From an uncultured archaeon (lineage in GTDB: Archaea; Thermoplasmatota; Penumbrarchaeia; JASLWR01), in assembly GCA_964342815.1 (NCBI GenBank), contig CAYFHS010000001.1, positions 279,107 to 343,106 of the forward strand: a DNA stretch of 64,000 nucleotides, in the 5' to 3' direction. Shown in pieces: positions 24,826 through 62,200 of the stretch. Positions within the stretch are counted from its first letter, which is position 1. Each line of letters starts with the position of its first letter. The notes under the pieces are model-generated. The model was not told the DNA's origin and searched no databases. It worked only from the letters and a program-made list of their open reading frames with translations. The translations under genes and the position numbers were made by a program.

Positions 24826-24828
24826 GAT

Positions 24829-26763: not shown

Positions 26764-26766
26764 GAT

Positions 26767-41500: not shown

Positions 41501-43130
41501 TGAGGTGTTCGTTTTTTCTATCGGCGCACTTGATAATATTAAGATTGATTCTGTTTTTGTCCGATACTCCTTTGATGTCGGAATGGATTTTAACCAAACG
41601 ATGTTTAGCACTGATTTGGAAAACTGGAGCTTGTCGATCTTGGTCCCGACCAACGCGACGTACTTAGAATATTCGTTCTTTATCAATGATACATCCGAAA
41701 ATTTCATAATTACTGAAATGCAAAACCGTACTGTTATTGACAATGACGATCCAATTGCCCTTGCTGGTGAGGATATCACAATTGATCAACATGAAAACAC
41801 ACTATTCAATGGTACTTTTAGTAGTGATAACGTAGCTATCATTAACTATACCTGGTCCTTTTTCTATAACGGAGAAAAGCTGATATATTATGGCAGTGAA
41901 GTTCCTATCACCTTTGATAGTGCTGGCGAAAATAATGTTACATTGAAAATTATTGACGAAGCAGGCAACTCGGATACCGATTACCTCATCGTTACAGTAC
42001 GGGATATCACTCCTCCGGTAGCAGAAGCTGGTGATGACTTTGTTATCGATCAGGGGCAATTGGTAAACTTCAATGGCAGTGGTTCCTATGACAACGTTTT
42101 ATTGGTTAATTATACCTGGACGATCATCTTTGGTAATGTCACACAAAGATTTTCCGGCTTGACCCCGAGCTTTACTTTCGATAAGCCTGGCATGTACCAT
42201 ATAAAATTAAATATCACAGATTCAGCGGGTAACTGGCATAGCGATCATCTCAATGTGACCGTCAGAGACAGCACTCCCCCGGTTGCACAAGCTGGTGAGG
42301 ATATTACAATCGAAGAGGGAGATACTGTTGTGCTAAACGGGACCGGAAGCAAGGATAATGTCGGCATCCTGACCTATACCTGGAGATTTATATACGATGG
42401 TGCCGAGAAAGAACTCAACGGCCCCTTGGCAAATTTCTCATTCTTAATTCCCGGTAATTACACGATCATTCTCACCGTGGAGGATGCCATGAGTAATATT
42501 GGGACTGATGTGGTCAAGGTGCAGGTAGAATCCACTGTGATTATAATACCTGATGATACTCCTGTTGAAAAAGAAAGCAGCTTCCCAATATGGGGCGTAA
42601 TTCTGATCGGACTCATTGTAATACTGATCATAATATTTTTAGTCGTTCTTATCCGTCTGAGGAATAAGAAGGAAGAAGCGGTTACTGAAGAAAAGGCGAA
42701 AGAATCTAACGTAAGTATTCCTGACGAGGAAACACCTATTGCCCGCCTGGATGAACCTGTGGATGTAACTGTAAAAACAGAGGAATTGAACCATTCCTCG
42801 GACCAATCTACAATTAATGAATCTGTTCCTCCAGTTGTTAGTTCAGATATCGCGTCGCCGATATGTCCAACATGCGGTCAGTTTTCCGTGTACTATCAGG
42901 AATACGAATGTTTCTGGTGTGATGGATGTCAGGACTATGTATCTTCTGAAGAAGAAAATCCAGGGGAAATTAATTATGAACCACGCCCACCTAGTGAAGA
43001 ATCACCCAAAGAGGAAATACCTTCAATTACTATCGAGAGCGATCCATCTTCACCCATGCCTAATGAACCCGAAGAAATAGTACCGGTAAGTGAAATTCTG
43101 GAATCTTCAGAAAATTCAGTTATTGATTGA
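38529..43130 (+). CDS. Surface adhesin (1533 aa): six FG-GAP (integrin-alpha-like) repeats, Ig-like repeats, three PKD domains, TM helix, zinc ribbon
   Basis: FG.SV..IGDLDGDG..DI.V.A..DDDGG...GAVWILF occurs six times; P.A.AG.D PKD motifs; TM IWGVILIGLIVILIIIFLVVLI; CPTC...CDGC. Likely start is 38547. Confidence 0.9.
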   Translation: MMAGLDMKRLTTMVVLIILLGTSSMITFYPDYNVMEVSLVVGDKKFPGIDAGKSNLNRNGEKIDAHIVKTHQKISDIEGGFNGTLDNQDYFGRSVSQIGDLDGDGITDIAACAYWDDDGGTNKGAVWILFMNRNGTVKSHQKISDTEGNFTGTLDIGDYWGESVTELGDLNGDGVLDIAVSAARDDDGGFNKGAVWILFLNINGTVKSHQKISDTEGGFTGTLDNEDFFGSSVSKIGDLDGDNITDIAVGAYFDDDEDFNVGAVWILFLNSNGTVKSHQKISQTEGGFNRGWMNGDLNALDWFGSSVSDIGDLNEDGILDIVVGVMRNDLFGIAAGHIWILFLNTDGTVKSHKKIPNFGEDLANELKAGDQFGCSVSDIGDLNGDGAIDILVGAFEDDDGGNDRGTVYVLFMNKDGTVKSHQKISDTGGNFKGILDNSDKFGTSVSGVGDLDGDGTLDIIVSAFEDDDGGQDRGCFWTFFLHDKPSFGTLWNSTLTTGDTERFSANVTDIIGGGLNEVWFNFTIDNDTALNWSVTNHTGNSWWVEMDIPNNATSFDYFFWVNNTDDVWAKTDKKTLKIFDNDEPSFGTLWQNELTTGDEEMFSVNVTDNMGVHSVLFDFKINGRSYKNWSVTNRTQDSWDITIVLPSNATIIEYRFRANDSSDNWGKVGNITRDVIDNDKPVFGKLWHNELTTGDVEMFSANITDNIDIHTVIFDFKINGTSHYNWTVTNNTENSWEISILIPFNALNFEYRFWANDSADNWGKTDNNTHIVIDNDKMMFGTLWHSPLTTGDPAVFSINVSDNIGLNEVWFNYILIDVEYNDHTFNLLVTNHTDVLSWKITIMIPPDATYIVYHFRATDMSDNGNETPIEASSILDNDLPVLGEDRSGEIPSTGDSYTFSLTVRDNIELANVSVWYKFDNESPFNVSMHNEGGLWIKTIDVPAKAFNLTYCFYIEDNTGNCLVVNKSMKKIHDNDLPRLQEDLITGIATTGEVFVFSIGALDNIKIDSVFVRYSFDVGMDFNQTMFSTDLENWSLSILVPTNATYLEYSFFINDTSENFIITEMQNRTVIDNDDPIALAGEDITIDQHENTLFNGTFSSDNVAIINYTWSFFYNGEKLIYYGSEVPITFDSAGENNVTLKIIDEAGNSDTDYLIVTVRDITPPVAEAGDDFVIDQGQLVNFNGSGSYDNVLLVNYTWTIIFGNVTQRFSGLTPSFTFDKPGMYHIKLNITDSAGNWHSDHLNVTVRDSTPPVAQAGEDITIEEGDTVVLNGTGSKDNVGILTYTWRFIYDGAEKELNGPLANFSFLIPGNYTIILTVEDAMSNIGTDVVKVQVESTVIIIPDDTPVEKESSFPIWGVILIGLIVILIIIFLVVLIRLRNKKEEAVTEEKAKESNVSIPDEETPIARLDEPVDVTVKTEELNHSSDQSTINESVPPVVSSDIASPICPTCGQFSVYYQEYECFWCDGCQDYVSSEEENPGEINYEPRPPSEESPKEEIPSITIESDPSSPMPNEPEEIVPVSEILESSENSVID

Positions 43131-43282: not shown

Positions 43283-46200
43283 TTATGCCTTTCGTATCTC
43301 TTCCAGGGCGTCCGAGAGGTTCATCAGTATTTTCCGGTTGATCTCCTCTATCTTGATCCTTCCGCCCCGCGCCTTTGTTCTCACACGGATCATGTCTCCT
43401 TTCATGGATACGATGGTTCTTTCGGTACCGGACCTGGATACGATCACATCACCCGGTCTCAATCCTTCCAGAGCTTCTTCGATGGTTTGCTCATCTACCA
43501 GCTCATCGGAGTCTTCAGCCTCATTGTCCTTGGAAAAATCAGCCCCGCATTTCGGACACACATCGGCGTCCTCACCCATGACACCCTGACAGCGTGGGCA
43601 GAAATATTCCACCAGCAGTGCTTCCACTTCCACCACCTCCGCTTCCACCATTTCCACAGCCTTCCTCCTCTTTTTACCGCCCTTTTTTCCATCAGATAGT
43701 TTCAATTCCATCTTTCTCTCCTTCCCCCTGCCTCTGAGTACTAGCACCAGGAAGATAACGTTCAGAAGGATAAAGCCTGCAATTATGGCAACAGCCATGC
43801 GCAATGGCCCGGAAAACTTGATCTCGTCATCCTCGCCTCCACTGGCTTTTGGTCCCGTCACCTCTACCTTGAACGTCTGCTTGGCGGAATTGCCTTTTCT
43901 ATCCTTAACCAGCAATGTGATTTTGTACGTTCCGGCTTCCAGATCATCCGGGTAGGATAACCTCGGGGAATCCGTCCTAAAGTTCCCGCGCTCATTGCCT
44001 TGGGAATCGGTCAATATCCAGTAGTATTCATCGATATCCATATCTGCAAAGTCATCTGGAATGACTATGTCGAGAGACGAGTCCAGCCCTATCTCGATGT
44101 TTTCCACTTTGTTTTTCGGATTGGTGTCAATTACATTAATATTGTACTCCACAACCGTGGTGAACCCCGCATCATTTTTCACCGTCAGAACGATCTCGTA
44201 ATTTATAGCTTCGGAAAAAACGAATTTTGGTTTCTTTTCATGGAACGTTTCGACCTTACCGTCATATTTGATGGTCCATGTATAGGTGAAGGTCACAGAG
44301 CCGTCGTCGATCCAATCACCGGCGTCGAGTTCAATCTCATCGCTATCTTCGTCATCCACATCAAGATTCGAGTGGAGGCCTGCGGGGGCCACCGGCGGAG
44401 TCACATCCGAAACGATTACGGAGAAGGTATCCTTTGCCCAGTTTCCAGCGGCATCAGTTACAGTCAAAGTGACGGTGAAATTTCCCACATTCGAAAATAC
44501 ATAATTTTGTGACATTCCCGTCATTATTCGCAGCCCATTGTCCTCCAGGGTCCAGGCATAGCTAACGATACCAACATTGTCTTTTGAGGCTCGCCCGTCA
44601 AAGTATACCGCTTCGCCCTGGTCCGCCGCTTGATCAATTCCTGCGAGAGCTGTTGGTGGAGTTGAATCCGTGATGTTAACCCACATCACGTCCGTATTCG
44701 AAAGACCCGCAGCATCAGTTACCGTGAGAGTCACCGGATAGTCCCCGACGGTCACGAATGCGAAACTTACAGTTTTTCCGAAGAGAGAATGCATGGTATC
44801 ACCATAGGTGAATTTCCATGTCCAGTTCACCACTCCTACGTTGTCCGATGACAAAGACCCGTTAAACTCTGCAACCGTTCCCTGGGTGCCGTTCAGATCG
44901 GGTCCGGCACTTGCCGCAGGAATAGTGATGTCTCTCACGATCACGACGAAATTATCCGATGCTTTATTTCCCCGAAGATCGCTGATCTCGAGAGTTATTT
45001 GGTATATGCCGGGAATATCGAATAAGTATGAAGTATGCTCGCCGTTAAGTGTGACGTTCATCCCATGGTATACGAATGACCAAATGTATTCGGAGACGGA
45101 GCCACCATCCGGGTCGAAACAGCCGGTACCGTTGAACTGCACCGTCATCCCCTCATCCACAACAATCTCTGCAGGATGGACCGCTGCGGGGGCTGTTGTA
45201 TCGTTCACAGTTATCTCGCAGTTATCAGTATCGGTATTCCCTCCGTAATCGGTAATTGTAAGCAGAATTTCATATATACCCGGATGAGTGAATAGAAAGG
45301 TTGGATTCTTACCTATGAGGTTTACGGGTGTGTCGTTATGATGGAAGGACCATTGATAGCTTTTTACCGCCATGTTGTCACTGGATTTGCTTCCATCGAA
45401 AAATACAATCACATTCTCGTCAGTGACCTGGTCAGTTCCTGCATCCGCTTCTGGTGATTCATCGTCGGATCCCACGATCAATATACTTTTGCAGATCAAC
45501 TCATTCATGTCGTCCTTCAGATACGCGCAAACCCCGAAGGAGCTTAGGTCCTGGTCCGTGGGCGAATTATCATATATGTTCGGTGTATTGATCTCGCATG
45601 AAAAATTTCCATTAGCGTTGGTGATGGTATCCACTGTCCTTCCCGTGAACGGGAACGTAACTACGACGTCCTCCGAGGAGAAGCCCGGAAAACACCCGTT
45701 CACCTGGATCGGGATGTTCAGAAGGGCCTGGTCGGTATTGGTTTCAATGGTGTTGGCAACCACTGCCGTGCTGTATGAATTGATTTCCATGGTAGTATCG
45801 AGTACGCTGTGGTCTTCGTCATCGGTGAGTGTAATGCGATATATGTCATGCTTGACCAGAGATTTCACGTCAGCCGAATAAGAAAAATTCATGGTGGAAG
45901 GATCGGCCGAGTCCGTTGAAATCGCCGAAAAACGGTATACATCGTAAGATACACCGTTTACAGTCACCGGGGCCTCCGAGGAGCTGGTCATGTCATAGGC
46001 GAAGGGAAATACCTCGGTGTATTTTTTCAGGTAATAGCCCAGTTCGGAAAGGTATAGGGAGAATGTCCGGTTCTGCTGCGTGGAAAAATTGAACTGCTCA
46101 CCAGGAGAGATTGGGAGGTCGAAGATGTCCACCATATCGAGATCGAACATGGTCTCGGAGATCTTGAAGCGCAGGGCCTGGGTTGTGGTATGGACGAATC

Positions 46201-46756
46201 CTTCCAGGTAGGTTTCCTCATGCAAAATGGCAAGATCGGAGCAACGGTAAATCCTGTAACCCGTGGTATCCCCCGGAGTTTTGGATAGCTTTGAGAAACG
46301 ATCGCCGTTAACTAATAGGGGGGCCCCGCTGTATACCGCATTTCCTATGGATCCGCCTGATACCGTGCAGTTGTATGCGAGATAGGAATTTCCGTCCGCG
46401 GCAGCGAACATCTCAATCCTTCTCAAGGTGTATTTCACCGTACCGTTCAGGAAGAGGAAATCAGTGCGGTCTGTCCAAGAATTATTAAATGTAGTGTTGT
46501 ACTCCCACCAGTCGCCGACTTTCCAGGTGGGAACGTCGGTTTCCGCCGTGAACCTGCTTAAAACACCTACATCACTTTCGACATTCGATCCTGGAGCGTT
46601 AATAACTTTGACATTGTTTTTTTCCGCCGAACCTTGATTTGAGTTGCACGGGATCTGCGAGCTGACAAGTAAGACCATTACCGATAATAATATTATTTTT
46701 TGAAATCTCATGTGGACACGTCCGGTTAATTCGATTTCGAGTGAAAAAATATTCAT
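43283..46756 (-). CDS. PKD-repeat surface protein (1157 aa) with TM helix, zinc ribbon and a small C-terminal SH3/KOW-like domain
   Basis: Signal peptide; N-domain VPTWKVGDWWEY; about six PKD repeats (A.AG.D...FDGS.S.DN.....W.W); TM MAVAIIAGFILLNVIFLVLVL; CPRC...CPKC. Confidence 0.88.
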   Translation of the reverse strand: MNIFSLEIELTGRVHMRFQKIILLSVMVLLVSSQIPCNSNQGSAEKNNVKVINAPGSNVESDVGVLSRFTAETDVPTWKVGDWWEYNTTFNNSWTDRTDFLFLNGTVKYTLRRIEMFAAADGNSYLAYNCTVSGGSIGNAVYSGAPLLVNGDRFSKLSKTPGDTTGYRIYRCSDLAILHEETYLEGFVHTTTQALRFKISETMFDLDMVDIFDLPISPGEQFNFSTQQNRTFSLYLSELGYYLKKYTEVFPFAYDMTSSSEAPVTVNGVSYDVYRFSAISTDSADPSTMNFSYSADVKSLVKHDIYRITLTDDEDHSVLDTTMEINSYSTAVVANTIETNTDQALLNIPIQVNGCFPGFSSEDVVVTFPFTGRTVDTITNANGNFSCEINTPNIYDNSPTDQDLSSFGVCAYLKDDMNELICKSILIVGSDDESPEADAGTDQVTDENVIVFFDGSKSSDNMAVKSYQWSFHHNDTPVNLIGKNPTFLFTHPGIYEILLTITDYGGNTDTDNCEITVNDTTAPAAVHPAEIVVDEGMTVQFNGTGCFDPDGGSVSEYIWSFVYHGMNVTLNGEHTSYLFDIPGIYQITLEISDLRGNKASDNFVVIVRDITIPAASAGPDLNGTQGTVAEFNGSLSSDNVGVVNWTWKFTYGDTMHSLFGKTVSFAFVTVGDYPVTLTVTDAAGLSNTDVMWVNITDSTPPTALAGIDQAADQGEAVYFDGRASKDNVGIVSYAWTLEDNGLRIMTGMSQNYVFSNVGNFTVTLTVTDAAGNWAKDTFSVIVSDVTPPVAPAGLHSNLDVDDEDSDEIELDAGDWIDDGSVTFTYTWTIKYDGKVETFHEKKPKFVFSEAINYEIVLTVKNDAGFTTVVEYNINVIDTNPKNKVENIEIGLDSSLDIVIPDDFADMDIDEYYWILTDSQGNERGNFRTDSPRLSYPDDLEAGTYKITLLVKDRKGNSAKQTFKVEVTGPKASGGEDDEIKFSGPLRMAVAIIAGFILLNVIFLVLVLRGRGKERKMELKLSDGKKGGKKRRKAVEMVEAEVVEVEALLVEYFCPRCQGVMGEDADVCPKCGADFSKDNEAEDSDELVDEQTIEEALEGLRPGDVIVSRSGTERTIVSMKGDMIRVRTKARGGRIKIEEINRKILMNLSDALEEIRKA

Positions 46757-48661: not shown

Positions 48662-51600
48662 CTAGAGATACAATTTGTCTGCCAGATTTCCTCCATCGTC
48701 ATTATCGCCGTCCTGCTGTGACTTGGAATTTCCGTCATCATCGATCTGTGGGTGCTCCAATCGATTCTCGTGATCTTTCTCCCATTTATACGCTTCGTAG
48801 ACCGATGCTATGTCGGCGACATTGGCCGCTCCTGCTCCGTCATCGGGACCTATGTACACGCCGTTGGTGGGAGTGTGTCCGGCAAACGCACTTAATAGAT
48901 AGAAGTCGAACTCGCAGTTCTCGTACTGGACCTCGTCGCCGTCGCCCGATGCCAGATATGAAAGCTCATTATACCTACAGGCAGTGGCGATCACGGTCTT
49001 CGAACTGCTCAGATCGTTAATAAAACCCCCGGCGTATGTCTGCTGAAGAAAAAATGTACGGTATTTGTAATTCGTAATCTTCCCCACATACGAATTTCCC
49101 GCGAACACATCGTCTTGCAGCTCAAAGTGTCCTCCATTGCCGTCATTCATCCGTATAAAACTGTGGTTCGTCACTGCGTTCCGGCTGCCGTGGTCGATGA
49201 CGGATACGAGAAGGAAATCGTCCGGAAGGACCACGTTTGAAAGATTTGTACATTCGGTCTGCAGCTCAGCGGGCGTCGCCGGACCGTCGGTATACGTTAC
49301 TCCAGCAGGAGTCGCGTAACCGCCGGTCTTCACGTCAGTCCCGGTGGAGTGAAGCAGGTGTATGTCGCGGTCGAGATAGCCGTATGACTTCAGTGCGTCG
49401 TACATGAATTTCGCATCGTTCCAGAATGCGTCTTCCTGGCCCAGGTCCAAGGGATTAGGGACTACCAGCAAAGCATGTCTCCCGTTATTCTCCACCGGGT
49501 CGTATTGGTCCGAGTAACCCGACCTCATGATCTCGTAGCCGTCGCTCATCCCGTCCCCGTCAGTATCCTCGTGGAATGTCCGGGGGTAACAAGATATTCG
49601 AACCTCGTCTATTCGCCCTTCGAAGTATTGGCTATCCCCGTAATATTTCGAACCTATATACATACCCATATCCGAACCGTACCCGATATCGTCCGCGAAA
49701 GTGGTGGCTGCCTCGCACACGCCGTTTATATATACCCTGACATCACTTCCATCGGATACCCCGGCAACGTGCCACCATTTATTTTCACTTACCGTGGCAA
49801 TAGTTAGGGCCGAGAACGAGTTTTCACCGTCGTCGTACACGAGGAACTGTATCGCTCCCGTTTCTCTCAACCTGAGGGCGTAACCCCCCTTGGTCTTGCC
49901 TTGTTCACTTGCCCTGTAGGAATTATCGACGATACACGACAGCTGCAGGTCCGTGGGATATATCCATGCCTCCACGGTTATGGTGGGCGGATTCAGCTCG
50001 GAAGGAACTGACGAATCCATCTTCAATCTGTCGTTCGCTCCGTCGTAAATGTAGCACCCTCCGTACTTTCCGCCTGTGGAGCTGTAAGTAATGGAGCCGT
50101 AGGTATCATCCATATCGTTATCCAGTGGTGATCTGTCGTCCAGCCTGCTTGACTTTGTACCCCCCTCGAAGGGTAGGTCCAGAACGTCGCCCCCGTAGTC
50201 CCGGGTCCCGCCATAGGTCGCATCGTAATTCGATATTCGAACCTCGTCTATTGCCCCGTTGAAATTGTGAAATGTGCCCGAATAACCTCCGATATACAGA
50301 GTTTTTGCCGGGCTTCCGTCCGGAGCATAGGTATCTCCCTCGCCGTCGAGCAATCCGTTAATATAGATCTTCACGTGAATATTACTGGTGCGAACCACTG
50401 CAATATGGGTCCATACACCGGTTGAAAGGGCGGAATCGCTGTAAACGTCCGGAGCCCATGGGGTATTGCCGCTTTCGAATACTATCTTTCCGGCTGAAGC
50501 ACCTGTTCTTCTGGTGAATATCCAGAAATGCCCTTCCTGTGCCACGATGGTATCCACACTTCCGGTGCCAGTACCGGCTCCGTCGTATTTTACCCATGCT
50601 TCTATGGTGGTCTTTCCTTTCAGGTTCAACCTTGCATCGGCTGGTATGCTCACGTAATCATTGTTGCCGTCGAAATCCAAAGCTCTTCCGTATTTCCCGT
50701 CGGTCATTGTGGGGCCGGATATGGTTCCATCTTTCAGTTTCTGCGGTGACCGATCCCTCAATCTATTGCCGGAAACTTCGTTGAAATTCCAGAATCCCAC
50801 GGTATCCCCGATCTCCCTATCGGTATCCGATATACTAACTTCGTCCACGAATCCCCTGAAATTGTGCGTTGAGCCGCCCCATGCCCCAATATAGGTATTG
50901 GCAGCGCTGGAGGGGGATGATTCATCTATATCATTCTCGGCATCAAGGACCCCGTTTATGTACATTTTAACGTTTTCGTTATTATCGGTACTGGGAGTTC
51001 TGACAATGGAGAGATGTGTCCATTCGTTCCTTGCCAGTTCGCTATTGCTCACAAGAGATTCCCATGGGTCCCCCGCGGAAAAACAGATCTTGTTCATCAA
51101 GCCCCCTGTCCTTCTCACATTGAGCCAGAAATGCTCGGATTGAGCGATTATGGTGTCGTATGAACCGCCAGTACCCGGCCCTTTCCAGAATACCCAAAGG
51201 TCGATGGTCAGTTTTCCCCTGATATCCATGGAATTATCATCTGGGATACTTGCATAATCGTCGGAACCTTCAAAATAAAGCGATCGTCCGTAAAGTGAAT
51301 TGCCGGCCTGCCCGGCTCCTGAGATTGTCAGATCTAGACCGTTTCCCGAATCTTCGTTCCCCGGGCCGCTGGCATTGTCGAAACCGTAATATGCCAGTGT
51401 GTTGGCATCACCGAGAAATCCGATCCCACCCGCAGCCATGGCCTGTTCGTTGTACGACATATTTCCAGGTGATTCTCTTTTTAGATCGTCCTTCATTGCA
51501 ACTTTACCCGGGGCATGTCTCCCCTGGGTCTTGTTGTTGGATTTTTCCTTCTTTGCCCTAGTTGGATTACCTTCGAGAAATTTATAATCATTGTCATCGG

Positions 51601-51748
51601 AATTCACTTGAACTTCTATATCTAGTACCTGGGTAAATAGCATGAAGACCAAAAAAATTACCATTATGCCAAAGAATACGCCAATAAGCCCATTTTTATG
51701 GATTTTCCCCTTTATTTTCATTTTGTCGGTCATATGTATACCATCCAT
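48662..51748 (-). CDS. Secreted or N-anchored protein (1028 aa): three LamG domains plus a caspase/legumain-fold (C13/C14-like) domain with Cys replaced by Thr
   Basis: Three F.G..DEV.IS LamG ends; ALLV...FWNDA..MY.AL...G, VIDHG and FLQQTYAGGF, where homologs have a His-Gly dyad motif and Q/E-x-C-Y-S-G-G-F. Confidence 0.75.
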   Translation of the reverse strand: MDGIHMTDKMKIKGKIHKNGLIGVFFGIMVIFLVFMLFTQVLDIEVQVNSDDNDYKFLEGNPTRAKKEKSNNKTQGRHAPGKVAMKDDLKRESPGNMSYNEQAMAAGGIGFLGDANTLAYYGFDNASGPGNEDSGNGLDLTISGAGQAGNSLYGRSLYFEGSDDYASIPDDNSMDIRGKLTIDLWVFWKGPGTGGSYDTIIAQSEHFWLNVRRTGGLMNKICFSAGDPWESLVSNSELARNEWTHLSIVRTPSTDNNENVKMYINGVLDAENDIDESSPSSAANTYIGAWGGSTHNFRGFVDEVSISDTDREIGDTVGFWNFNEVSGNRLRDRSPQKLKDGTISGPTMTDGKYGRALDFDGNNDYVSIPADARLNLKGKTTIEAWVKYDGAGTGTGSVDTIVAQEGHFWIFTRRTGASAGKIVFESGNTPWAPDVYSDSALSTGVWTHIAVVRTSNIHVKIYINGLLDGEGDTYAPDGSPAKTLYIGGYSGTFHNFNGAIDEVRISNYDATYGGTRDYGGDVLDLPFEGGTKSSRLDDRSPLDNDMDDTYGSITYSSTGGKYGGCYIYDGANDRLKMDSSVPSELNPPTITVEAWIYPTDLQLSCIVDNSYRASEQGKTKGGYALRLRETGAIQFLVYDDGENSFSALTIATVSENKWWHVAGVSDGSDVRVYINGVCEAATTFADDIGYGSDMGMYIGSKYYGDSQYFEGRIDEVRISCYPRTFHEDTDGDGMSDGYEIMRSGYSDQYDPVENNGRHALLVVPNPLDLGQEDAFWNDAKFMYDALKSYGYLDRDIHLLHSTGTDVKTGGYATPAGVTYTDGPATPAELQTECTNLSNVVLPDDFLLVSVIDHGSRNAVTNHSFIRMNDGNGGHFELQDDVFAGNSYVGKITNYKYRTFFLQQTYAGGFINDLSSSKTVIATACRYNELSYLASGDGDEVQYENCEFDFYLLSAFAGHTPTNGVYIGPDDGAGAANVADIASVYEAYKWEKDHENRLEHPQIDDDGNSKSQQDGDNDDGGNLADKLYL

Positions 51749-52753: not shown

Positions 52754-55700
52754 CTAATTGTTCCACTCATTATCCCACGGTGAAGCGGATTCTCCCTGCT
52801 CCGATGAGAGTGGAACGTTAGGGACGCTCTCTTCAGGTTCAATGGATTCATCCAGTTCATGGGGTTCAACGTTTTCCTTTTTCTTTCGAGCAAATAAAAG
52901 GACAGCCACCACCACTACTGCAATTACGACGATAATCCCTGCTATTATAATCCCTAATGCGGCTTCACCCATCCTGGAATCCGTTTCTCCCTTTTCAGGA
53001 ATCAAATCGTCCGACGGAGTGATCTTGACCACCATATGATCCTCTGCCCAGTTCCCCACATCATCGGTGATATTGAGTGTAATATTATAGGTACCTGTTT
53101 CCACAAAGGTAAAGGAAACCTCGCGCCCCTTCAGTTTTACGAGCTGTCCATCATATTCGAACGACCACGTGAAATTGGCAATGTTAATGTTATCGCTGCT
53201 CAAAGAGCCGTCGAAGCTGACAATTTCTCCTGCCTTTCCGGTAATATCCCCCCCAGCATCAGCTTCCGGTCTCGTGAGGTCAGTTACCGTTATCAGGATC
53301 GTATCCGTATCATTATTCCCCGCTGGATCCTTCACCGTGAGGCTCACCTCATAAGTACCTATGGTGGAGAAAGTGTAACTCGCCGAAGATGTCTCCACGG
53401 TTTTCAACACCCCGTCATGACCTACAAAAATAAAGCTCCATTGATAATCGACGATACCCATGTTGTCGCTACTGCCACTCCCGTTGAAAAGTACAGTTTC
53501 GGACACTCCCACCACCCGATCACCACCAGCATCCGCCACAGGTTCTTCTATATCGTTCACTGTGACAGTCAATTCATCGGTAGCCAGATTGCCCATGGCA
53601 TCCTTAACCGTCAGGTTGATAGTGTAAAAACCGGCATTATCGAAGGTATATTCCGGTGAACTACCGTATAAAAATATTGGATCACCGTCCAAAAAGCTCC
53701 ATGTAAGGTTCGTCACCAGAATGTTATCGGTGCAGCCACTCCCGTTGAAAACAACTTTACTGTGTTGGTCGACCAACACATCATCCCCGGCATCGGCAAA
53801 AGGTTTAGTGATGTCGAGCACAGTGACAGTCATACCGTCAATAGCCCAATTACCATAGGTGTCTGTTACGTTCAATGTTACGGGATAGATACCTGCAATA
53901 GCGAATTCGAAGCTGGGAGCAGGACCCGATAGATTGATCAGGGAATCGTCGTAGAAGAAACTCCAGTTATACCCCTCATTTGCCCTTATCCCGACGTTAT
54001 CGCTGCTTCCGCTCCCATTAAACTGCACTGTTTCGTGCTGGTCCACAATGATATCGGGGCCGGCGTCTGCAAAGGGTGGTATCGGGTCAGTAACCTCCAC
54101 GGAGAATTCCCTCCAGCCAGAGTTCCCGGCTTCGTCGGTCACCGTCAATATCACCCGGAACATCCCAGTGTGATAAAAGCTGTAACTGACATTTGCTCCG
54201 TAGATTTTAGCAATAAATCCTTCGGGATTACCTTGTAAAAAATCCTGGATTATCCAGGTATAATTGACTATGCTACCACCTTCCGGATCAAAGCTTGTAC
54301 TTCCATCCATGAATAATGCGGACCCAATATCCTTTGTAACGCTGCTGTTAGGAGTGGTTATTACAATGGGAGGGGTGATGTCCAGCACGTTAACATAGAT
54401 GAAATCCGAATCCGTAAAACCGCCAATGTCAGTGACAGTGAGGGTCAATGTATAATTTCCCGGTATCTCGAAACTGTGCTCTGGCATCATCCCGTAGAAT
54501 GAACGCGGGCCGTCGGTTGAATCGTATTCCCAGGTGAAGTTAGCTATTGCCCGATCGTCGAAGCTTCCGGAAGCATTGAATCTATATAGTGTATCCTCAG
54601 GGATGGACAATGATGAACCGGCGTCTGCCGTGGGTCCGTCATTATCGGATTCCACTATCGTTAAGGTCCGGCTCATAATCTTGTTGTTCGGGTTCAGGTC
54701 CATGTAAGCGCACACACCAAATGAACCATTGTCTGCAGTAGTATTTGTGGGGTCCCAGCTTGACGGCGAGATAATATCCACAGCATAATCTCCGGTCCCA
54801 TCCGTCTTTCCGTACCACATTTCCCCGGTTAACGGAATAGTTACGATGATATCCTCGTTTGGATCGTTGGGAAAACTGCCGGAAACCCGTGTTGGGCTAC
54901 CTGCCAGATTTGTAGAAGGCAGTAGCTCGATACTGTTCTCATCCTGGGCGATATTGTAATTGCGCAGCTCCCGTCGGTCCTGCATGGTACCGGTGCTGGA
55001 TAATTTAATATCGAGATGATTTTCCCTTATTATATTTTTTACAACCGGGGAGTACCATAGGGCACTGCGCTCGTTATTGATATAAGAGCTTCCGTCCAGG
55101 TGGTAGGTGTTGAAAACCCCGGCGATTACGGTATCCTGCACGTTCGAAGTTCCGTTGACGGTGAAATTGTACTGGGAAATACTGTCGTAGTGTTGGGAGT
55201 AATCGGCCATATCCGCAACGTTCACGTCGGCAATGCGCCGGCGGGTAGTGTTATACCAGAATGAATCACCGTTCTTTGCCGGAAAGTCGATATCCTCAAC
55301 AGGGACTATATCCCATGATATGAACTTGATCGTGGTTATTGGAGCCAACCAGACACCAGGAAATACTTCGTAATGGATGTGCCCCTGCAAGACCATCTTG
55401 TCGTGGAGGACCGAGAGATCGCTGGCACGAACTACCCTGTAACCGGATACGCTTCCTTTTTGATTTGCGTTTGGCGGGCCGCTGTTCTGTCCGTCGAAAT
55501 GAAAAACTGTCCCGTCCACGGAAAATTTTCCATGCACGGTTCCCGATAATGTCAGATTGTATGCTGGATACAAGGTTCCATTCTTGTCATAAAAATTGAT
55601 TTTCGATACAGTTAAGGTTGCATTACTCCACAAAGACAGGTAATCGGAATTGTCACTGAATGATATGTAGATGATACCGTAATAGGTCCAATCATCACCA

Positions 55701-55933
55701 ACCTGCCAGGATGGGACGTCGATCATGTTATCTCGTGGCGATCTGCCCGCTTTTCCCTCGGTACCTTCCTCAATTTTCAATCCACTGTCGACATTACAGC
55801 TCCTTGATTCTTTGCTGTAGCTGTACATCCCGTCACGGCTCAATCGGACGGCATGTGGAAAACCCGAGAACAGCAGAATAGTAACACTGATCAAAATGAT
55901 TATTTTCCTTTTCATATATATCATCACCCGCAC
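52754..55933 (-). CDS. PKD-repeat surface protein (1059 aa), paralog of 43283-46756
   Basis: VPSWQVGDDWTY and SFGVCAY shared with the 1157-aa protein; about six PKD repeats; TM ALGIIIAGIIVVIAVVVVAVLLFA. Confidence 0.88.
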   Translation of the reverse strand: MRVMIYMKRKIIILISVTILLFSGFPHAVRLSRDGMYSYSKESRSCNVDSGLKIEEGTEGKAGRSPRDNMIDVPSWQVGDDWTYYGIIYISFSDNSDYLSLWSNATLTVSKINFYDKNGTLYPAYNLTLSGTVHGKFSVDGTVFHFDGQNSGPPNANQKGSVSGYRVVRASDLSVLHDKMVLQGHIHYEVFPGVWLAPITTIKFISWDIVPVEDIDFPAKNGDSFWYNTTRRRIADVNVADMADYSQHYDSISQYNFTVNGTSNVQDTVIAGVFNTYHLDGSSYINNERSALWYSPVVKNIIRENHLDIKLSSTGTMQDRRELRNYNIAQDENSIELLPSTNLAGSPTRVSGSFPNDPNEDIIVTIPLTGEMWYGKTDGTGDYAVDIISPSSWDPTNTTADNGSFGVCAYMDLNPNNKIMSRTLTIVESDNDGPTADAGSSLSIPEDTLYRFNASGSFDDRAIANFTWEYDSTDGPRSFYGMMPEHSFEIPGNYTLTLTVTDIGGFTDSDFIYVNVLDITPPIVITTPNSSVTKDIGSALFMDGSTSFDPEGGSIVNYTWIIQDFLQGNPEGFIAKIYGANVSYSFYHTGMFRVILTVTDEAGNSGWREFSVEVTDPIPPFADAGPDIIVDQHETVQFNGSGSSDNVGIRANEGYNWSFFYDDSLINLSGPAPSFEFAIAGIYPVTLNVTDTYGNWAIDGMTVTVLDITKPFADAGDDVLVDQHSKVVFNGSGCTDNILVTNLTWSFLDGDPIFLYGSSPEYTFDNAGFYTINLTVKDAMGNLATDELTVTVNDIEEPVADAGGDRVVGVSETVLFNGSGSSDNMGIVDYQWSFIFVGHDGVLKTVETSSASYTFSTIGTYEVSLTVKDPAGNNDTDTILITVTDLTRPEADAGGDITGKAGEIVSFDGSLSSDNINIANFTWSFEYDGQLVKLKGREVSFTFVETGTYNITLNITDDVGNWAEDHMVVKITPSDDLIPEKGETDSRMGEAALGIIIAGIIVVIAVVVVAVLLFARKKKENVEPHELDESIEPEESVPNVPLSSEQGESASPWDNEWNN

Positions 55934-56062: not shown

Positions 56063-59000
56063 TCATGATAATGGAACGGGTGATGGGGCCGGTGGGGCTG
56101 TTGGCGGTCCCGTGGGGGTCACCAGAGGTGCGTCTTCTACAATAGGAGCTGTCGGTGGTCCCGTTGGATTCACCGGGGGTGCGTCTTCTATAATAGGAAC
56201 TGTCGGTGGTCCCGTGGGGGTCACAGGAGCTGTGTCCTCTACAACGGGAGCCGTCGGCGGTCCCATGGGATTCACCGGAGGTACGTCTTCCACAATAGGA
56301 GCTGTCGGCGGAGTTGTGGGTGGAAGCAGCGGATTCATTTCCGGGGCAGAGGAAGTATTTCCCGCTAATTCCTGTTTTACCATCGGTACCGGAACTGTAT
56401 TGGCGTTACTCGCCATTCCAGGGGTTTCCATTGCCTGAATGGACATCATCAGGTTCTGGAACTCATCCTCCGGCGGGGTTGCATCGGCAATATCCCCGGA
56501 TGCTGGTGAAACCGGGAGAACAGGTTCCAGGGTAGTGGGGAAATCCGGTCCGGGTATTTCCGGAATTCCGGGGGCGGTGATCTCTGTGATGGAACTTGCC
56601 TCGGGAAGTGCCAGTCGGTTCAGGTCGAGTACACCCTGGTCCGTTGGAAATGCCGGCAATACATAACTGGCCCCGTCCGGCGGCCCAAAGGTGGTCCCTG
56701 TCTGCACCGGCAATGCTGTGGGAACCGGTTGAGCAGGTGGTATATGGGACTGGTAACCCTGGTTTTGATAACCGTAGCCGGTCTGCTGTTGATATCCGAC
56801 ATAGGGTGAAACCACCACCTGCCCCATGGGTAGTGTTGAGGTTTGGACAGGATATACCATGCTGTTTTGAGTGCTCAGCTGACCGTAATTGTCGTATTGA
56901 CCCGGACCACCCATAGTACCCGGCGTCTGCATACCCATTTGACCGCCTTGCCATTTTCTCTCCTTTTCGGCCGCGGCGGATTGAGCTTCCTTTTTTTTCT
57001 TCCTTTTCCTTCCGACTAACACAATGACCATGATGATAATTAATAGTACAAGAGCGGAAATACCTAGCAGTATCAACCAGTATTTCGCAAAAAGACCTTC
57101 CTCGGGTACTTTTTGTTTTTTCTGCTTGATCAGTTCTTGTTGGTACGTCTCCAGGTACTCGTCCGTTGCGTCGTTGGGGTTCTCGGGGTCCAGACCATTG
57201 ATCTTTTCCCACCAATCGGGAAGTGTATCTCCATCGCTGTCTGTCATATCCTCCCATCTCTCCTCCACCTCTTCCTTGCTGGGTTTCGCCACTATTTCGA
57301 TCCTAACACTGGTACTTTCATTGAATCCCAGTCCGTCGTCCACGTAAAGAAGAATGGTATAATCGCCCGATATGTCGAGAACAGTGGTAACAACTCTATC
57401 ACTCCCCCGGAATACAATATTTTTAGTCGTTTTCTCCTTTATTTGCCAATGAAAAGCCAGATCATCATTGTCAATATCGGTACTCCTATTGGCGCTCATA
57501 GTTATAAATGAACCTTCCTCGAAGATTGCGTCATTTCTAGGTTTATGGATAACCGGGTGCGGCGGCGAGTTGATATGTATGCGGTACCCTTCGGAAACCG
57601 TAAACCCGTTGCCCACGGCATCCTTGGCGCGCCACCTGATATGGTTATCCCGGCCAGCCTCGAACCGGATGTCGAGAAGCATGTCCATACTTTCCAGTAT
57701 CATATTATTGCCGACCGAGGTCCAGTTCCGATAAAATTCCTCTTTATCTCCCCAACTCGAAATACAATATTCCACAGTATTTCCATCCACTCCGCTTCCT
57801 CCGGGATCCGTCAAGGTTATTCCGCAGAGAACCATGTTTTCCAGAAATATTTCCTGCCCATCCGGGACCGGACTGCTGAATAGCACCGGGGTCATATCTA
57901 TTTTAACATTGAGGTTCTTGCTGGCGGTCGGCCCGTTCCCGGCCAGATCGCCGATCCTCCACCTATAGCTGTTCTCACTTCCATCGAAAAAATCTATTTT
58001 TACCTCCGCCCGAACCTTTACGGGATTATCCTGTATTCCCCTCTCCAGAAACTCATAATCCAATTTGTCCGCGGTCCAGGCAGAAAATGAGTTTTCACCG
58101 TTTTTCCGGTATGAGTACATAATACTATCAAGATCCAGGCCGAAACTGTCGGGATCCTCGAAGATGGCATATACATCCACCGAGGTCTGATTGAACCATT
58201 GGCCCCCGTCAGGGCCGATTTCGGAAATAATCGGAACTGACGTATCGATATTGATCCGGAAGTGGGTCGCATTGCTCCACTGGTCGTATATGTCGCAGCA
58301 GCTTATGTGGAAATACCATGTTCCATCAGCCAGACCGGAAAATTCACCCGGAAAGGTTCCCGTTAAATGGCTGTTCGGTGTATAAATTACCTTCGTGGGC
58401 TCCGAAATTGGAGAGCCATCCAGCATATATGAATAACCCTTTACTCCTGTTACTTCCCGGGGGGCTTCCCACTGGAAAACTGGAAGCGTGCTGTTGTAAT
58501 ACATCATTTCATCCGGGTGGGTGGGTGAGCTGATGGTGATGTCTCCCGGACCATCAAGATCGAAATATACCGTATCGTTGTAAAGCTCGGATACAATTCC
58601 TGCGTGGTCCCGGAACCTTACACTGATCTTTTTAAGGCCGTCGGTCTGGGTAAGAGCGATTCTTTTTTCCGTGGAGTAAGCTTCCCAGGGTCCAACGTTT
58701 CCGCGGTCTCCGATTATCTGCATGTCGGCCATACCGCTTCCGTTGTCCGTTGCATTTATGGCAAGGTCCACGAGATTTTCGTTAACCGTGGCTGCCCCCT
58801 CCTCAATTGTGATGTTACCCACGGGCTTTGTGACGTCTATCATTATTTTTTTCAGCCCGGAAAAGTTGCTGGCGGCGTGAAAGCTATCCTTAGTACGGAC
58901 CCGCCAGTAATATGTCCCATCGTCCAGTTTCATTCCTACCGTATGTTCGGGTTTAGTTGAATTCACCCAAGATGAGTTATAGATCAAATTCTCCATTTCC

Positions 59001-60418
59001 GGCTCGCCGAATATTTCCAGATGGTAATCGGACTGGTGATCTCCGGTATCTGGATCGGTGAAGTTCCATTCCAGCTTGGGAGTATTGTTCGCATGCCATG
59101 TGTTTGAGCCCGGTGCGAAAGGTTCCGGATCGCTCACGAGATCAAATTGTATTACAATACTATCAATACCGGGGGTCACATCCGGGTCCTTCGTGGTAAG
59201 TGTTGCGTTCCACATAAGCCTGGAACCCCGATCGTCGAATACATGCCAGCTATCGTTCTGCATGATCACCCAGTTTTCACCGTTAGCGGTCATGTTGTAA
59301 ACGATATTCGTTCCCTGGGGTTTGTATTCGAACCACGTCATCCTGGCCGCACCCACCATTGGCCAGTTTTTATATACCGGCTTGGACTGGATGGTGCCGT
59401 TGGTGAATCCCTCCAGGTTGCCCCAGACGTCCGCCACATTATCGAGGGCGAACGTATCTTTCCAACCAAGACCGGTAAATAGCCGATTATGGAAATAGTC
59501 GTAGCTTGCATCCACCACGTATGAGTTGCTTATGAAAACCTCGTTGGTGTAACTGTGAATTGCGCCAGTATCGCCGTCAATCCGATGAGTGATCCGGGCC
59601 TGGCTGTAGGCGACGGTGTAAAAATAATGGCCCACAGCAAAACACGTGCTGTAGCCGTTCTTGTGTGGAAGACCGTTTACGGTTCTCAGAAGATTCTCGT
59701 TAAGATCCCATACCTTGAGGGTGGTGTCGGACCACGTATAGATATATACACCGTCACAGGCAACCCCCTGCTGGCTGGGTCCGCGCCATCCCCAGCGGGA
59801 CGTTCTCGCATGCTGGATATTGCTCTGCACTGTAGCTTTGTCACCAAGGCGCACCTTTCTCAAGGTATCGCTTGCTTCGGATGACGTATAAAGATGCCCG
59901 TTGGCTATGAACATCTGTGTGGAATGCTGGGATTCGGGGACATTTAAGGTGTCTATCCGGTTCCTGTTATTGAAATAATCGGTCCAGTCATTGAATATCT
60001 CCACCGTGTTGCCGGAGCCCGCGTTCAGATGATAGTACCTGCCGTTCTCGTCCACCGCCATTGAATTGAAACCGTTGTGACCGACGTGGTGATCGTGCTG
60101 GGTAACCTGACGGATATTGCTCTTTGGCGTCCCCTGTCCTCTTAAATGAACGTCTTTGTTGTAAGTATCCACAACCACAGTCGTATTGCTGTAATCGATA
60201 TTATCCGTGGTCGAGAAATCCTCAACGAGTACATTGTCGTTACGAGTGATGGTTGAATGGACTGATTGAATCGATTCCTTTTCATGCTCGGGATCGATAA
60301 TTGCAACCAGATTCTCATTATCCATGGGAGGGTAAAAATATCCCGGGAACAGCAGCGGGAGAGTAAGCATCGAGGTAAGAAGAACTATGAATTTTCCTTT
60401 ATACGAGGTAGTTATCAT
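56063..60418 (-). CDS. Giant surface protein (1451 aa): olfactomedin-like beta-propeller, Ig/FN3-like domains, PKD, TSP3-like motif, TM helix, Gln/Gly/Tyr- and Pro-rich cytoplasmic tail
   Basis: Signal peptide; olfactomedin-like motifs (see findings); DSDGDTLPDWWE; TM YWLILLGISALVLLIIIMVIVLV. Confidence 0.82.
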   Translation of the reverse strand: MITTSYKGKFIVLLTSMLTLPLLFPGYFYPPMDNENLVAIIDPEHEKESIQSVHSTITRNDNVLVEDFSTTDNIDYSNTTVVVDTYNKDVHLRGQGTPKSNIRQVTQHDHHVGHNGFNSMAVDENGRYYHLNAGSGNTVEIFNDWTDYFNNRNRIDTLNVPESQHSTQMFIANGHLYTSSEASDTLRKVRLGDKATVQSNIQHARTSRWGWRGPSQQGVACDGVYIYTWSDTTLKVWDLNENLLRTVNGLPHKNGYSTCFAVGHYFYTVAYSQARITHRIDGDTGAIHSYTNEVFISNSYVVDASYDYFHNRLFTGLGWKDTFALDNVADVWGNLEGFTNGTIQSKPVYKNWPMVGAARMTWFEYKPQGTNIVYNMTANGENWVIMQNDSWHVFDDRGSRLMWNATLTTKDPDVTPGIDSIVIQFDLVSDPEPFAPGSNTWHANNTPKLEWNFTDPDTGDHQSDYHLEIFGEPEMENLIYNSSWVNSTKPEHTVGMKLDDGTYYWRVRTKDSFHAASNFSGLKKIMIDVTKPVGNITIEEGAATVNENLVDLAINATDNGSGMADMQIIGDRGNVGPWEAYSTEKRIALTQTDGLKKISVRFRDHAGIVSELYNDTVYFDLDGPGDITISSPTHPDEMMYYNSTLPVFQWEAPREVTGVKGYSYMLDGSPISEPTKVIYTPNSHLTGTFPGEFSGLADGTWYFHISCCDIYDQWSNATHFRINIDTSVPIISEIGPDGGQWFNQTSVDVYAIFEDPDSFGLDLDSIMYSYRKNGENSFSAWTADKLDYEFLERGIQDNPVKVRAEVKIDFFDGSENSYRWRIGDLAGNGPTASKNLNVKIDMTPVLFSSPVPDGQEIFLENMVLCGITLTDPGGSGVDGNTVEYCISSWGDKEEFYRNWTSVGNNMILESMDMLLDIRFEAGRDNHIRWRAKDAVGNGFTVSEGYRIHINSPPHPVIHKPRNDAIFEEGSFITMSANRSTDIDNDDLAFHWQIKEKTTKNIVFRGSDRVVTTVLDISGDYTILLYVDDGLGFNESTSVRIEIVAKPSKEEVEERWEDMTDSDGDTLPDWWEKINGLDPENPNDATDEYLETYQQELIKQKKQKVPEEGLFAKYWLILLGISALVLLIIIMVIVLVGRKRKKKKEAQSAAAEKERKWQGGQMGMQTPGTMGGPGQYDNYGQLSTQNSMVYPVQTSTLPMGQVVVSPYVGYQQQTGYGYQNQGYQSHIPPAQPVPTALPVQTGTTFGPPDGASYVLPAFPTDQGVLDLNRLALPEASSITEITAPGIPEIPGPDFPTTLEPVLPVSPASGDIADATPPEDEFQNLMMSIQAMETPGMASNANTVPVPMVKQELAGNTSSAPEMNPLLPPTTPPTAPIVEDVPPVNPMGPPTAPVVEDTAPVTPTGPPTVPIIEDAPPVNPTGPPTAPIVEDAPLVTPTGPPTAPPAPSPVPLS
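56090..56325 (-). repeat. Intragenic 51-bp (17-aa) repeat GPPTAPIVEDAPPVNPT, about 4.5 copies
   Basis: Visible in the protein tail and as ...gtcggtggtcccgt.gg. DNA units. Confidence 0.9.
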
Positions 60419-60638: not shown

Positions 60639-61268
60639 ATGAGAATGAATCCAATCCTTAAAAAACTCCACCTTGAAGAAAAGGAATTTGTCACCTCGTT
60701 TGAGATCAGGAACTACTGCGATATCTTTGATTATAATTATTATAACACGATCAGAAACCTCACCTCAAGAGGGTATCTGCTGAGAATCTTCAAGGGTGTC
60801 TTTTATCTGAAGACCTTTGACGAAGTAAAGCTCGGGAAAATGAAATACTCCCATCTGGACCTGGTATCGAAAGGACTTGAGCTTAAGGGTGTGAAAAACT
60901 GGTATTTTGGTCTCCAAACGGCACTTAAGCTGAATAATGCAACGCACGAACATTTCACTATGGATTATGTGATAAATGACAAACTTTTCAGAAGCAAACC
61001 CATTACTATCAATGGTTATAGATTTAAATTTGTAAAACTAAAGAAAGGACTTATGGGATTTGGTGTGAACCGGAACATAATTCAGTATTCCGATATGGAT
61101 AAGACCATACTTGACCTCATCTATATCTGGAGGTATAACGGAAAGCCTGAAGTAAAGATCATCGGGGATATTTCCGAATACAGGGATCATATCGTTCCGG
61201 ACAGAATAAACCAATATTCCATACATTATCCCAAAAGCGTTAAAAGAACACTGGAGAGGATTATTTGA
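60639..61268 (+). CDS. AbiEi-like type IV toxin-antitoxin antitoxin / transcriptional regulator
   Basis: N-terminal wHTH (L.SRGYLLRIFKGVFY), WYFGL.TAL.L...T and D..KT.LD..Y; coupled to a nucleotidyltransferase gene. Confidence 0.8.
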   Translation: MRMNPILKKLHLEEKEFVTSFEIRNYCDIFDYNYYNTIRNLTSRGYLLRIFKGVFYLKTFDEVKLGKMKYSHLDLVSKGLELKGVKNWYFGLQTALKLNNATHEHFTMDYVINDKLFRSKPITINGYRFKFVKLKKGLMGFGVNRNIIQYSDMDKTILDLIYIWRYNGKPEVKIIGDISEYRDHIVPDRINQYSIHYPKSVKRTLERII

Positions 61269-62200
61269 AAGCTTTTATTTCTGAAATAAGCAACTCTCTA
61301 AACATAATACGCGCCGATCTTGTGGAAAAAGACGTACTTCTTTAAAATATCCTTCTCTCATTATCGGAAAATGACTTCTATCGTAACAATTTCCTGTTCA
61401 AGGGCGGCACTTGTCTAATCAAATCGTATCTGGGATATTACCGATTTTCAGAAGATCTTGATTTTACCTGGAGAGATCAAAGTAAATTTAACAAGATGTC
61501 AAGTAAGGAATTGCGAAGGTTTCTTTCAGCGATAATCGATAAAACAGGTACGTTGCTTGAAGCTACTGCCAAATCATTCGGACTTGATTTCTTATCCGAT
61601 AAAAGTGATCGAAGATATATCGAATTGGGAGGGAGCAATAAAATCGTTACCTTCAAATTATGGTATGATTCAGTGATTTTAAAACATGAGGCTTTCCTGA
61701 AAATACAGATCAATTTTGTCGAGAAACTTTTATTCCCTCCGGCCAATCGAACTTTCGGAAGTCTGATCTCAAGTAAGGATCATGAAGATTTGGGATTGTT
61801 TTTTCCAGAAGAGTACGGAATATTTGTCCGAGAAATCACTTTCCCCGCGTATGACCTCCGTGAGATACTCTGTGAAAAAGGAAGGGCAATTTTAACAAGA
61901 AAAGGTAGTAAAGCCAGAGATTTTGTAGATTTGTTCATGATCTCGCAAGACCTCCATATAGTTCCAGATGATTTCAAATCGGAGATAATTGAAAAAACAG
62001 TTTTTAGCCTGAGCCTATATAAGAAATATCGTGAGAATTTGGCCGTAAAAAAAGAACTTTTTTCATTAGGTGATTATTTTGAATGGGGTGCTGAAAAAGA
62101 TTTTTTATTATGTGAAATTCCAATGGAAAAGTTTTACAACTTTGTGAAAGATGTGCAAAACTCTATTTTAAAAACGGCCAATGAGATTAGTGTTCTTTGA
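61265..62200 (+). pseudogene. AbiEii-family nucleotidyltransferase toxin with a premature TAA at 61343-61345
   Basis: The TTG at 61265 overlaps the antitoxin stop. The frame reads ...LVEKDVLL*NILL...FLFKGGTCLIK.YLGYYRFSEDLDF and continues into the tracked ORF 61496-62200 (LREILCEKGRAIL...ARDFVDL). Confidence 0.88.

Follow-up and report, generated by a model that had tools for sequence, protein, structure and literature searches.

A strongly diverged olfactomedin domain as the probable head of a stalked archaeal surface protein

The window considered here is a stretch of 64,000 nucleotides from an uncultured marine archaeon of the Thermoplasmatota (assembly GCA_964342815.1, contig CAYFHS010000001.1, positions 279,107 to 343,106). 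Towards its end a single open reading frame (ORF) on the minus strand, 56063..60418, encodes a predicted type I membrane protein of 1451 amino acids (aa), P0001; all P0001 features given below are on that strand. A sequence-only reading had picked out 59440-60135, which is residues 95-326 of P0001, as an olfactomedin-like (OLF) five-bladed propeller in an archaeal surface protein. The flagged stretch is, with a probability of about 0.8, a true but strongly diverged OLF head of a type I surface protein and likely its ligand-binding or adhesive tip. Research on OLF domains has been almost confined to animal proteins: myocilin, known from glaucoma, the latrophilins, the noelins and gliomedin.

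Relationship to the olfactomedin family

The Pfam OLF profile (PF02191) matches whole P0001 at 25.6 bits (E 1.1e-5), above its curated gathering cut-off of 23.9 bits, and the excised domain at 29.6 bits (E 6.7e-7); five of the six P0001 orthologues also pass the cut-off. The lack of a significant profile match, named beforehand as grounds for giving up the olfactomedin idea, was not what was found. The match covers residues 122-308 (59495..60055) and about positions 25-226 of the 246 in the profile. The limits of the propeller are wider, at residues 98-332 (59423..60127), when they are taken from structural alignment with OLF chains over model residues 13-248.

Independent evidence for homology comes from a profile made only of the diverged clade to which P0001 belongs and its two nearest distant relatives, with canonical OLF sequences excluded. 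Against the PDB it finds myocilin (1.2e-5) and latrophilin-1/3 (1.3e-5 to 8e-5) over some 180 columns, and the sequence matches considered were OLF chains only, with no cyclase chains among them. A profile-profile comparison had also been proposed as a check, and hhalign pairs the P0001 type with the canonical archaeal OLF clade at 90% probability (E 1.5e-6, 208 columns, 30% identity). The identity of the P0001 head to solved OLF chains is 13-17%.

The sequence-only reading had set six peptides beside motifs of myocilin. All six are present in the stated order (residues 160-177, 183-191, 209-223, 258-269, 279-285 and 304-314), and the printed hidden Markov model (HMM) alignment pairs every motif in the same way. 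In the alignment to myocilin VPESQHST..NGHLY pairs with LPRPLEST..NGSLY, WGWRG..ACDG with SWGGYTDIDLAVDE, and TCFAVGHYFYTV with NAFIICGTLYTV; DGDTG falls on the DT.TG turn and ASYDYFHNRLF on IDYNPLE.KLF. Aligned to both myocilin and latrophilin, P0001 has the OLF motifs in order: NG.LY, W.G...D, the F..G..Y blades, the D..TG turn and the Y(D/N)...L of the last blade.

Predicted fold and the nearest propellers

With a 13-row alignment of residues 85-350, AlphaFold arranges 20 strands as five blades of four (predicted local distance difference test score, pLDDT, 76; predicted template modelling score, pTM, 0.81). Canonical OLF rows were present in that first alignment. A repeat with only the P0001-type clade (clade A, below) and the relatives P0008 and P0018 again gives five blades, at pLDDT 70. 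In a Foldseek search of the PDB the best 44 matches are all OLF structures and the first non-OLF structure is a glutaminyl cyclase, while a shape search of the ESM Atlas returns clusters of gliomedin, myocilin-like, OLFML2B and latrophilin proteins at template modelling (TM) scores of 0.73-0.78. The claim of a five-bladed olfactomedin-like propeller is borne out by these models, to which OLF structures are closest; no six- or seven-bladed model was obtained.

The closest known structures are animal OLF domains, especially that of gliomedin (PDB 4d77, 4xav, 5yby) and also those of latrophilin-3, noelin/OLFM1 and myocilin. Their settings differ from that of P0001: in animals the domain is joined to a coiled coil, a collagen or a G protein-coupled receptor, whereas in P0001 it is followed by an Ig-like stalk, a membrane helix and a proline-rich tail, in an archaeal host. 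The plant/bacterial-type glutaminyl cyclases (PDB 3mbr, 3nol, 2iwa), five-bladed propellers too, were also compared. That the domain is such a cyclase (PF05096), or a YjiK-type enzyme, which merely resembles OLF is very improbable. Fold searches with both models place OLF chains 5-7 Z units above the glutaminyl cyclase-type propellers, which are not the closest structural class. There is no Glu_cyclase_2 match to P0001 even at E 10, whereas OLF passes its cut-off, and the same genome has a canonical OLF paralogue.

Several results weigh against the olfactomedin assignment, or against what is built on it. Full-length P0001 exceeds the Pfam cut-off by just 1.7 bits, and one orthologue, P0003, lies 1 bit under it at 22.9 bits. 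Searched against the PDB as a single sequence with phmmer, the head finds no OLF chain. AlphaFold was trained on OLF structures, so that its model and the sequence similarity are not wholly independent lines of evidence; the confidence of the model is moderate, with pLDDT below 50 at both domain edges. The ESM Atlas feature search, as distinct from the shape search, gives generic propeller clusters (SGL, NHL, Reg_prop) at no more than 0.83, below the tool's reliability line. Finally, a common fold alone is no proof of binding.

What phmmer does find in the PDB are designed WD40 propellers, each matched repeatedly at one 30-residue hairpin; these were rejected as a local motif. The clade profile also catches WD40 proteins, and with the SGL, NHL and Reg_prop clusters of the Atlas these matches are what might be expected if the domain were a six- or seven-bladed propeller of WD40, NHL or SGL type and its OLF signal spurious. 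Such an explanation is hardly credible, as the WD likeness is confined to the one 30-residue hairpin, P0001 has no Pfam WD40 (PF00400) match and the models are five-bladed. The source of the likeness can be located. The middle blade of the P0001 head has five residues fewer than canonical OLF, and this deletion gives rise to a WD-repeat-mimicking hairpin, SDTTLKVWD (the WD40-like feature DGVYIYTWSDTTLKVWDLNENLLRTV, residues 217-243, 59690-59770). The hairpin draws hundreds of WD40 proteins into profile searches and accounts for the WD40 matches of both the single-sequence and the clade-profile searches. The WD resemblance is, on this sequence comparison, treated as local. A second departure from animal and other canonical OLFs, besides the shortened hairpin, is some 16 extra residues after the last blade.

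Absence of the calcium site and the disulfide

In the HMM alignment the calcium ligands of myocilin, D380, N428 and D478, are replaced by G, T and S in P0001, which thus lacks the internal Ca2+ site. The myocilin disulfide cysteine C433 is replaced by glycine, and a disulfide of the C245-C433 type is likewise missing; the two cysteines of the P0001 domain, C221 and C259, are away from that position. The canonical paralogue of the same genome, P0007, is also without the calcium ligands and the cysteine, having N, W, S and G at the corresponding positions. These losses do not exclude OLF membership, because gliomedin also lacks both: the Ca2+ site is present in most OLFs but is not universal, and gliomedin, without Ca site or disulfide, is nevertheless very stable (PMC4488277). 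A naturally calcium-free and disulfide-free OLF domain should be easy to express in bacteria and would be of use in work on folding and stability that bears on myocilin.

Architecture of P0001 and its likely orientation

The order of the parts follows from the single ORF, which has no introns or stops within it. Residues 10-24 (60347..60391) are a hydrophobic segment preceded by two lysines and, on a reading of the sequence, a probable signal peptide by which P0001 would be secreted. A poorly conserved linker joins it to the OLF head. The head is followed by a stalk, residues 346-1040 (57299..59383), of about seven beta-sandwich domains of Ig-like/PKD-like kind, the number being an estimate from repeat spacing. 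The stalk has weak Pfam matches only (Ig_Rha78A_N, Big_3_3, Y_Y_Y and PKD_4), but it contains internal repeats spaced 100-115 residues apart and resembles the P0007 stalk repeatedly. The ectodomain has 20 N-glycosylation sequons, 19 in the stalk and one in the head. An acidic DSDGD...DPENPND motif of the bacterial thrombospondin type 3 kind comes next (residues 1060-1083, 57170..57241). The motif itself has no significant match to Pfam TSP3_bac, but the P0007 segment aligned to it does (E 4.8e-7).

A hydrophobic-run scan gives a single membrane helix, residues 1113-1136, which is followed by RKRKKKK at residues 1137-1143 (helix and basic cluster together 56990..57082). The arrangement of an ectodomain followed by one membrane helix, as the sequence-only reading had it, is therefore present in P0001. 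The basic cluster after the helix would, by the positive-inside rule, put the tail in the cytoplasm and the head outside. An extracellular head in a multidomain protein is also suggested by the N-terminal hydrophobic segment, by the position of the one helix with its RKRKKKK near the C-terminus, and by the sequon-rich stalk.

The putative cytoplasmic tail, residues 1144-1451 (about 315 aa, 56066..56989), is 19% proline, rich in Q, G and Y, and without cysteine. It is alignable to the tail of P0007 and contains a conserved motif, LPAFPTDQGVLDLNRLALP (residues 1254-1272, 56603..56659), which is found in 11 of 22 members of a genome family described below and aligns with P0007. At the C-terminus a tandem repeat of 51 nucleotides in 4.2 copies (78% matches; 56097..56311) encodes proline-rich units of 17 aa. 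A terminal zinc ribbon is absent from P0001 and its same-genus orthologues. It is kept in the distant orthologues P0004 and P0006 and in most relatives.

Taken in order, then, the protein would consist of a signal peptide, the OLF head, some seven glycosylatable beta-sandwich domains, the acidic motif resembling thrombospondin type 3, the helix and the proline-rich tail of about 315 residues, and the head would be its tip, raised above the membrane by some tens of nanometres and serving in ligand binding or adhesion.

A family with a common stalk, helix and tail

P0001 belongs to a genome family with at least 22 members, ORFs of 1170-1466 aa, each with a single membrane helix some 300 aa from the C-terminus and, further, with the tail motif LPxFxT[DE]QG..NL.R[ML]ALP and/or a terminal four-cysteine zinc ribbon, CHxC...CxxC. 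P0001 fits in size, helix and tail motif, and lacks the ribbon. Many family genes stand in tandem arrays of up to eight, on contigs C1 (139-176 kb), C10 (49-79 kb), C26 (10-22 kb) and others. The heads are heterogeneous: OLF (three times), Laminin_G_3, endostatin-like, disaggregatase-like and many without a Pfam match. Such diverse heads on a common chassis support the OLF propeller being an exchangeable ligand-binding tip. One member, G000:C10:66229-70386, with its head in locus L036, has an endostatin / collagen NC10-like head (PF06482, E 5.5e-19), again a module that is known chiefly from matrix proteins of animals. The genome has a large archaeal family of putative stalked receptors with heads of animal-matrix type: OLF, laminin G, FG-GAP and endostatin-like.

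Prokaryotic giant adhesins with PKD/Ig stalks are known, for instance the Methanosarcina surface-layer protein (PDB 1l0q), in which a YVTN propeller and PKD/Ig-like repeats are likewise combined on an archaeal surface; a probable role in adhesion or in the envelope is shared by these proteins and P0001.

Constraint on the head and three paralogous lineages

P0001 has orthologues, 73-91% identical to it, in four genomes of a single family, and one of these orthologues is a protein from a metagenome-assembled genome of a Candidatus Thermoplasmatota archaeon, in keeping with the archaeal host that had been claimed. Across the six orthologues the head averages 85% identity to P0001 and all other segments 29-70% (48-70% for the stalk segments, 29% for the tail). 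The ratio of nonsynonymous to synonymous substitution rates (dN/dS) against orthologues is 0.04-0.11. Against the same-genus orthologue it is 0.04 for the head, 0.08 for the stalk and 0.20 for the linker; against an orthologue from another genus it is 0.07 for the head and 0.11 for the stalk. From the pattern of identity and dN/dS, this is a genuine gene, in which the head is under the strongest constraint.

The genome has two further OLF-type heads. P0007 (1443 aa; G000:C1:166938-171269, 108 kb before the window) has a canonical one, matched by Pfam OLF at 9e-41 (140 bits) and by noelin and myocilin at 1e-29 to 1e-27. It is like P0001 in length and architecture, except that its tail ends in the four-cysteine zinc ribbon. 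The two heads, 26-29% identical, match in BLASTP at E 1e-11, and stalk, helix and tail together match at 29% identity over 678 residues (E 2e-53). The third head, that of P0080 (G000:C3:86239-90600, locus L015), was found with a combined profile and is 39% identical to the P0001 head, the stalks being 61% identical. P0080 and the other heads of its type are not matched by Pfam OLF even at E 10, and a PDB search with their profile alone brings up no OLF chain. hhalign nevertheless pairs this clade with the canonical OLF clade at 96% probability (E 1.2e-9); without clade A as an intermediate or a profile-profile comparison, it shows no link to OLF.

An unrooted tree separates three clades: A, the P0001 type; B, the P0080 type with archaeal P0008 and P0018; and S, the canonical type of P0007. 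The nearest relatives of the P0001 head beyond its orthologues are P0080, P0008 and P0018, at 39%, 33% and 27% identity. P0008 adjoins a Kae1/RIO-kinase gene pair. Among the four genomes of the taxonomic family, A and B occur in all four, adjacent in two, and S in three. One archaeal family thus holds diversified OLF heads and not just a single canonical copy.

Compared with the stalks, the heads are more diverged between the paralogues A and B and more conserved between orthologues. This fits binding specificities that moved apart once the genes had duplicated and were afterwards preserved by purifying selection. A, B and S are three old OLF-type paralogues; their heads diverged after duplication and each has since stayed under strong purifying selection, which fits three different ligand specificities.

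The paralogue comparison also bears on whether the head binds a ligand at all. It may be an OLF fold on the surface and yet serve as a structural or self-associating element of the envelope, whether in a canopy resembling a surface layer or in homophilic contacts. A rigid wall is often missing in Thermoplasmatota, and this genome encodes at least 22 stalked proteins of similar build; oligomerisation is common in animal OLF proteins (the noelin tetramer, PMC4463452), and very high conservation of the head would also suit a self-interface. Against this, the heads of the family are entirely different, which varied ligands would explain better than one lattice, the paralogue heads have diverged faster than the stalks, and beside the head there is no evident coiled coil or other element for oligomerisation. 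A role of this kind is consequently judged unlikely, and a ligand-binding or adhesive head is preferred.

Distribution and possible origin

OLF domains have been described as modules of multicellular organisms (PMC4488277), and the literature searches made here found no paper on prokaryotic OLF domains. Given this background, and the sequence-only match of the canonical paralogue to noelin and myocilin of animals (E 1e-29 to 1e-27), animal DNA might be suspected, through contamination of the assembly or a very recent transfer from animal to archaeon. There is next to no chance of this. The head is in frame with a prokaryote-type stalk, helix and tail that are common to about 20 other genes of the genome. 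Its orthologues in the four genomes of the family have synonymous sites near or beyond saturation (dS at least 1.2). Further, there are three deeply diverged paralogue clades, and introns and stops are absent.

Among 401 sampled Thermoplasmatota genomes Pfam OLF is found in only four, all of one family. With the combined profile the number rises to five, the added genome having a B-type head and being from a second family of the same class. In a search of 1.84 billion representative sequences with the clade A profile, the whole-domain matches are the three representatives of the query clade together with P0008 and P0018. The other matches, about 64, are WD40 proteins caught on the 30-residue hairpin and were set aside. 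Word-index homologue searches and a scan of genome contigs gave close relatives only, and tblastn found nothing that matched the canonical head among plasmids or the P0001 head among phages.

The top row of the Atlas shape search is a Pseudomonadota cluster of 159 proteins, whose representative of 513 aa has Cadherin_4 and Big_9 domains. It aligns to the head model with a TM score of 0.75 over 244 residues and is without a Pfam OLF annotation. On the strength of the model comparison this cluster may be an unrecognised bacterial OLF-like group.

Two of the three OLF lineages are at or below the Pfam detection limit, and the prokaryotic range of the fold is therefore probably underestimated. The three deep paralogue lines, the B-type head in a second family, P0018 and the Pseudomonadota cluster lacking a Pfam OLF call lead to a bolder and rather doubtful proposal. 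In it OLF would be no invention of animals but an old prokaryotic surface-receptor head, diversified without being noticed, that animals acquired later; the archaeal proteins would be true transmembrane adhesion receptors, in which the conserved tail motif and the zinc ribbon would couple binding outside to a cytoplasmic partner. The sequences assembled here are a set with which a prokaryotic origin of the animal OLF module can be tested.

Other genes of the window

Much of the rest of the window, 1344-55933, is taken up by an island of giant surface proteins that are single-pass and differ in their heads: a beta-helix/NosD head with several tail zinc ribbons (1344-7424), Laminin_G_3 heads (9642-14810 and 48662-51748), FG-GAP repeats like those of integrin alpha (38529-43130) and PKD arrays (43283-46756 and 52754-55933). 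In BLASTP at 1e-3, P0001 shows no similarity to any other large ORF here, so that these neighbours are not close paralogues of it.

Between the P0001 gene and a MatE transporter gene, at 60639-62200 on the plus strand, are a 209-aa ORF without a Pfam match and then a gene for an AbiEii nucleotidyltransferase toxin (E 2.8e-11). In a same-genus genome (locus L007) the MatE gene comes directly after the P0001 orthologue with no such pair between them, and on this account the pair looks like an inserted toxin-antitoxin cassette.

Three consecutive large ORFs on the minus strand at 19705-31203 (1706, 644 and 1478 aa) lack a membrane helix and are not matched by Pfam at 1e-5. A CPKCG...C..CG zinc ribbon stands at the end of the first, and the second and third have a near-identical C-terminal peptide, ..QLE..I.EM..LG...P......LE.LK.KE.

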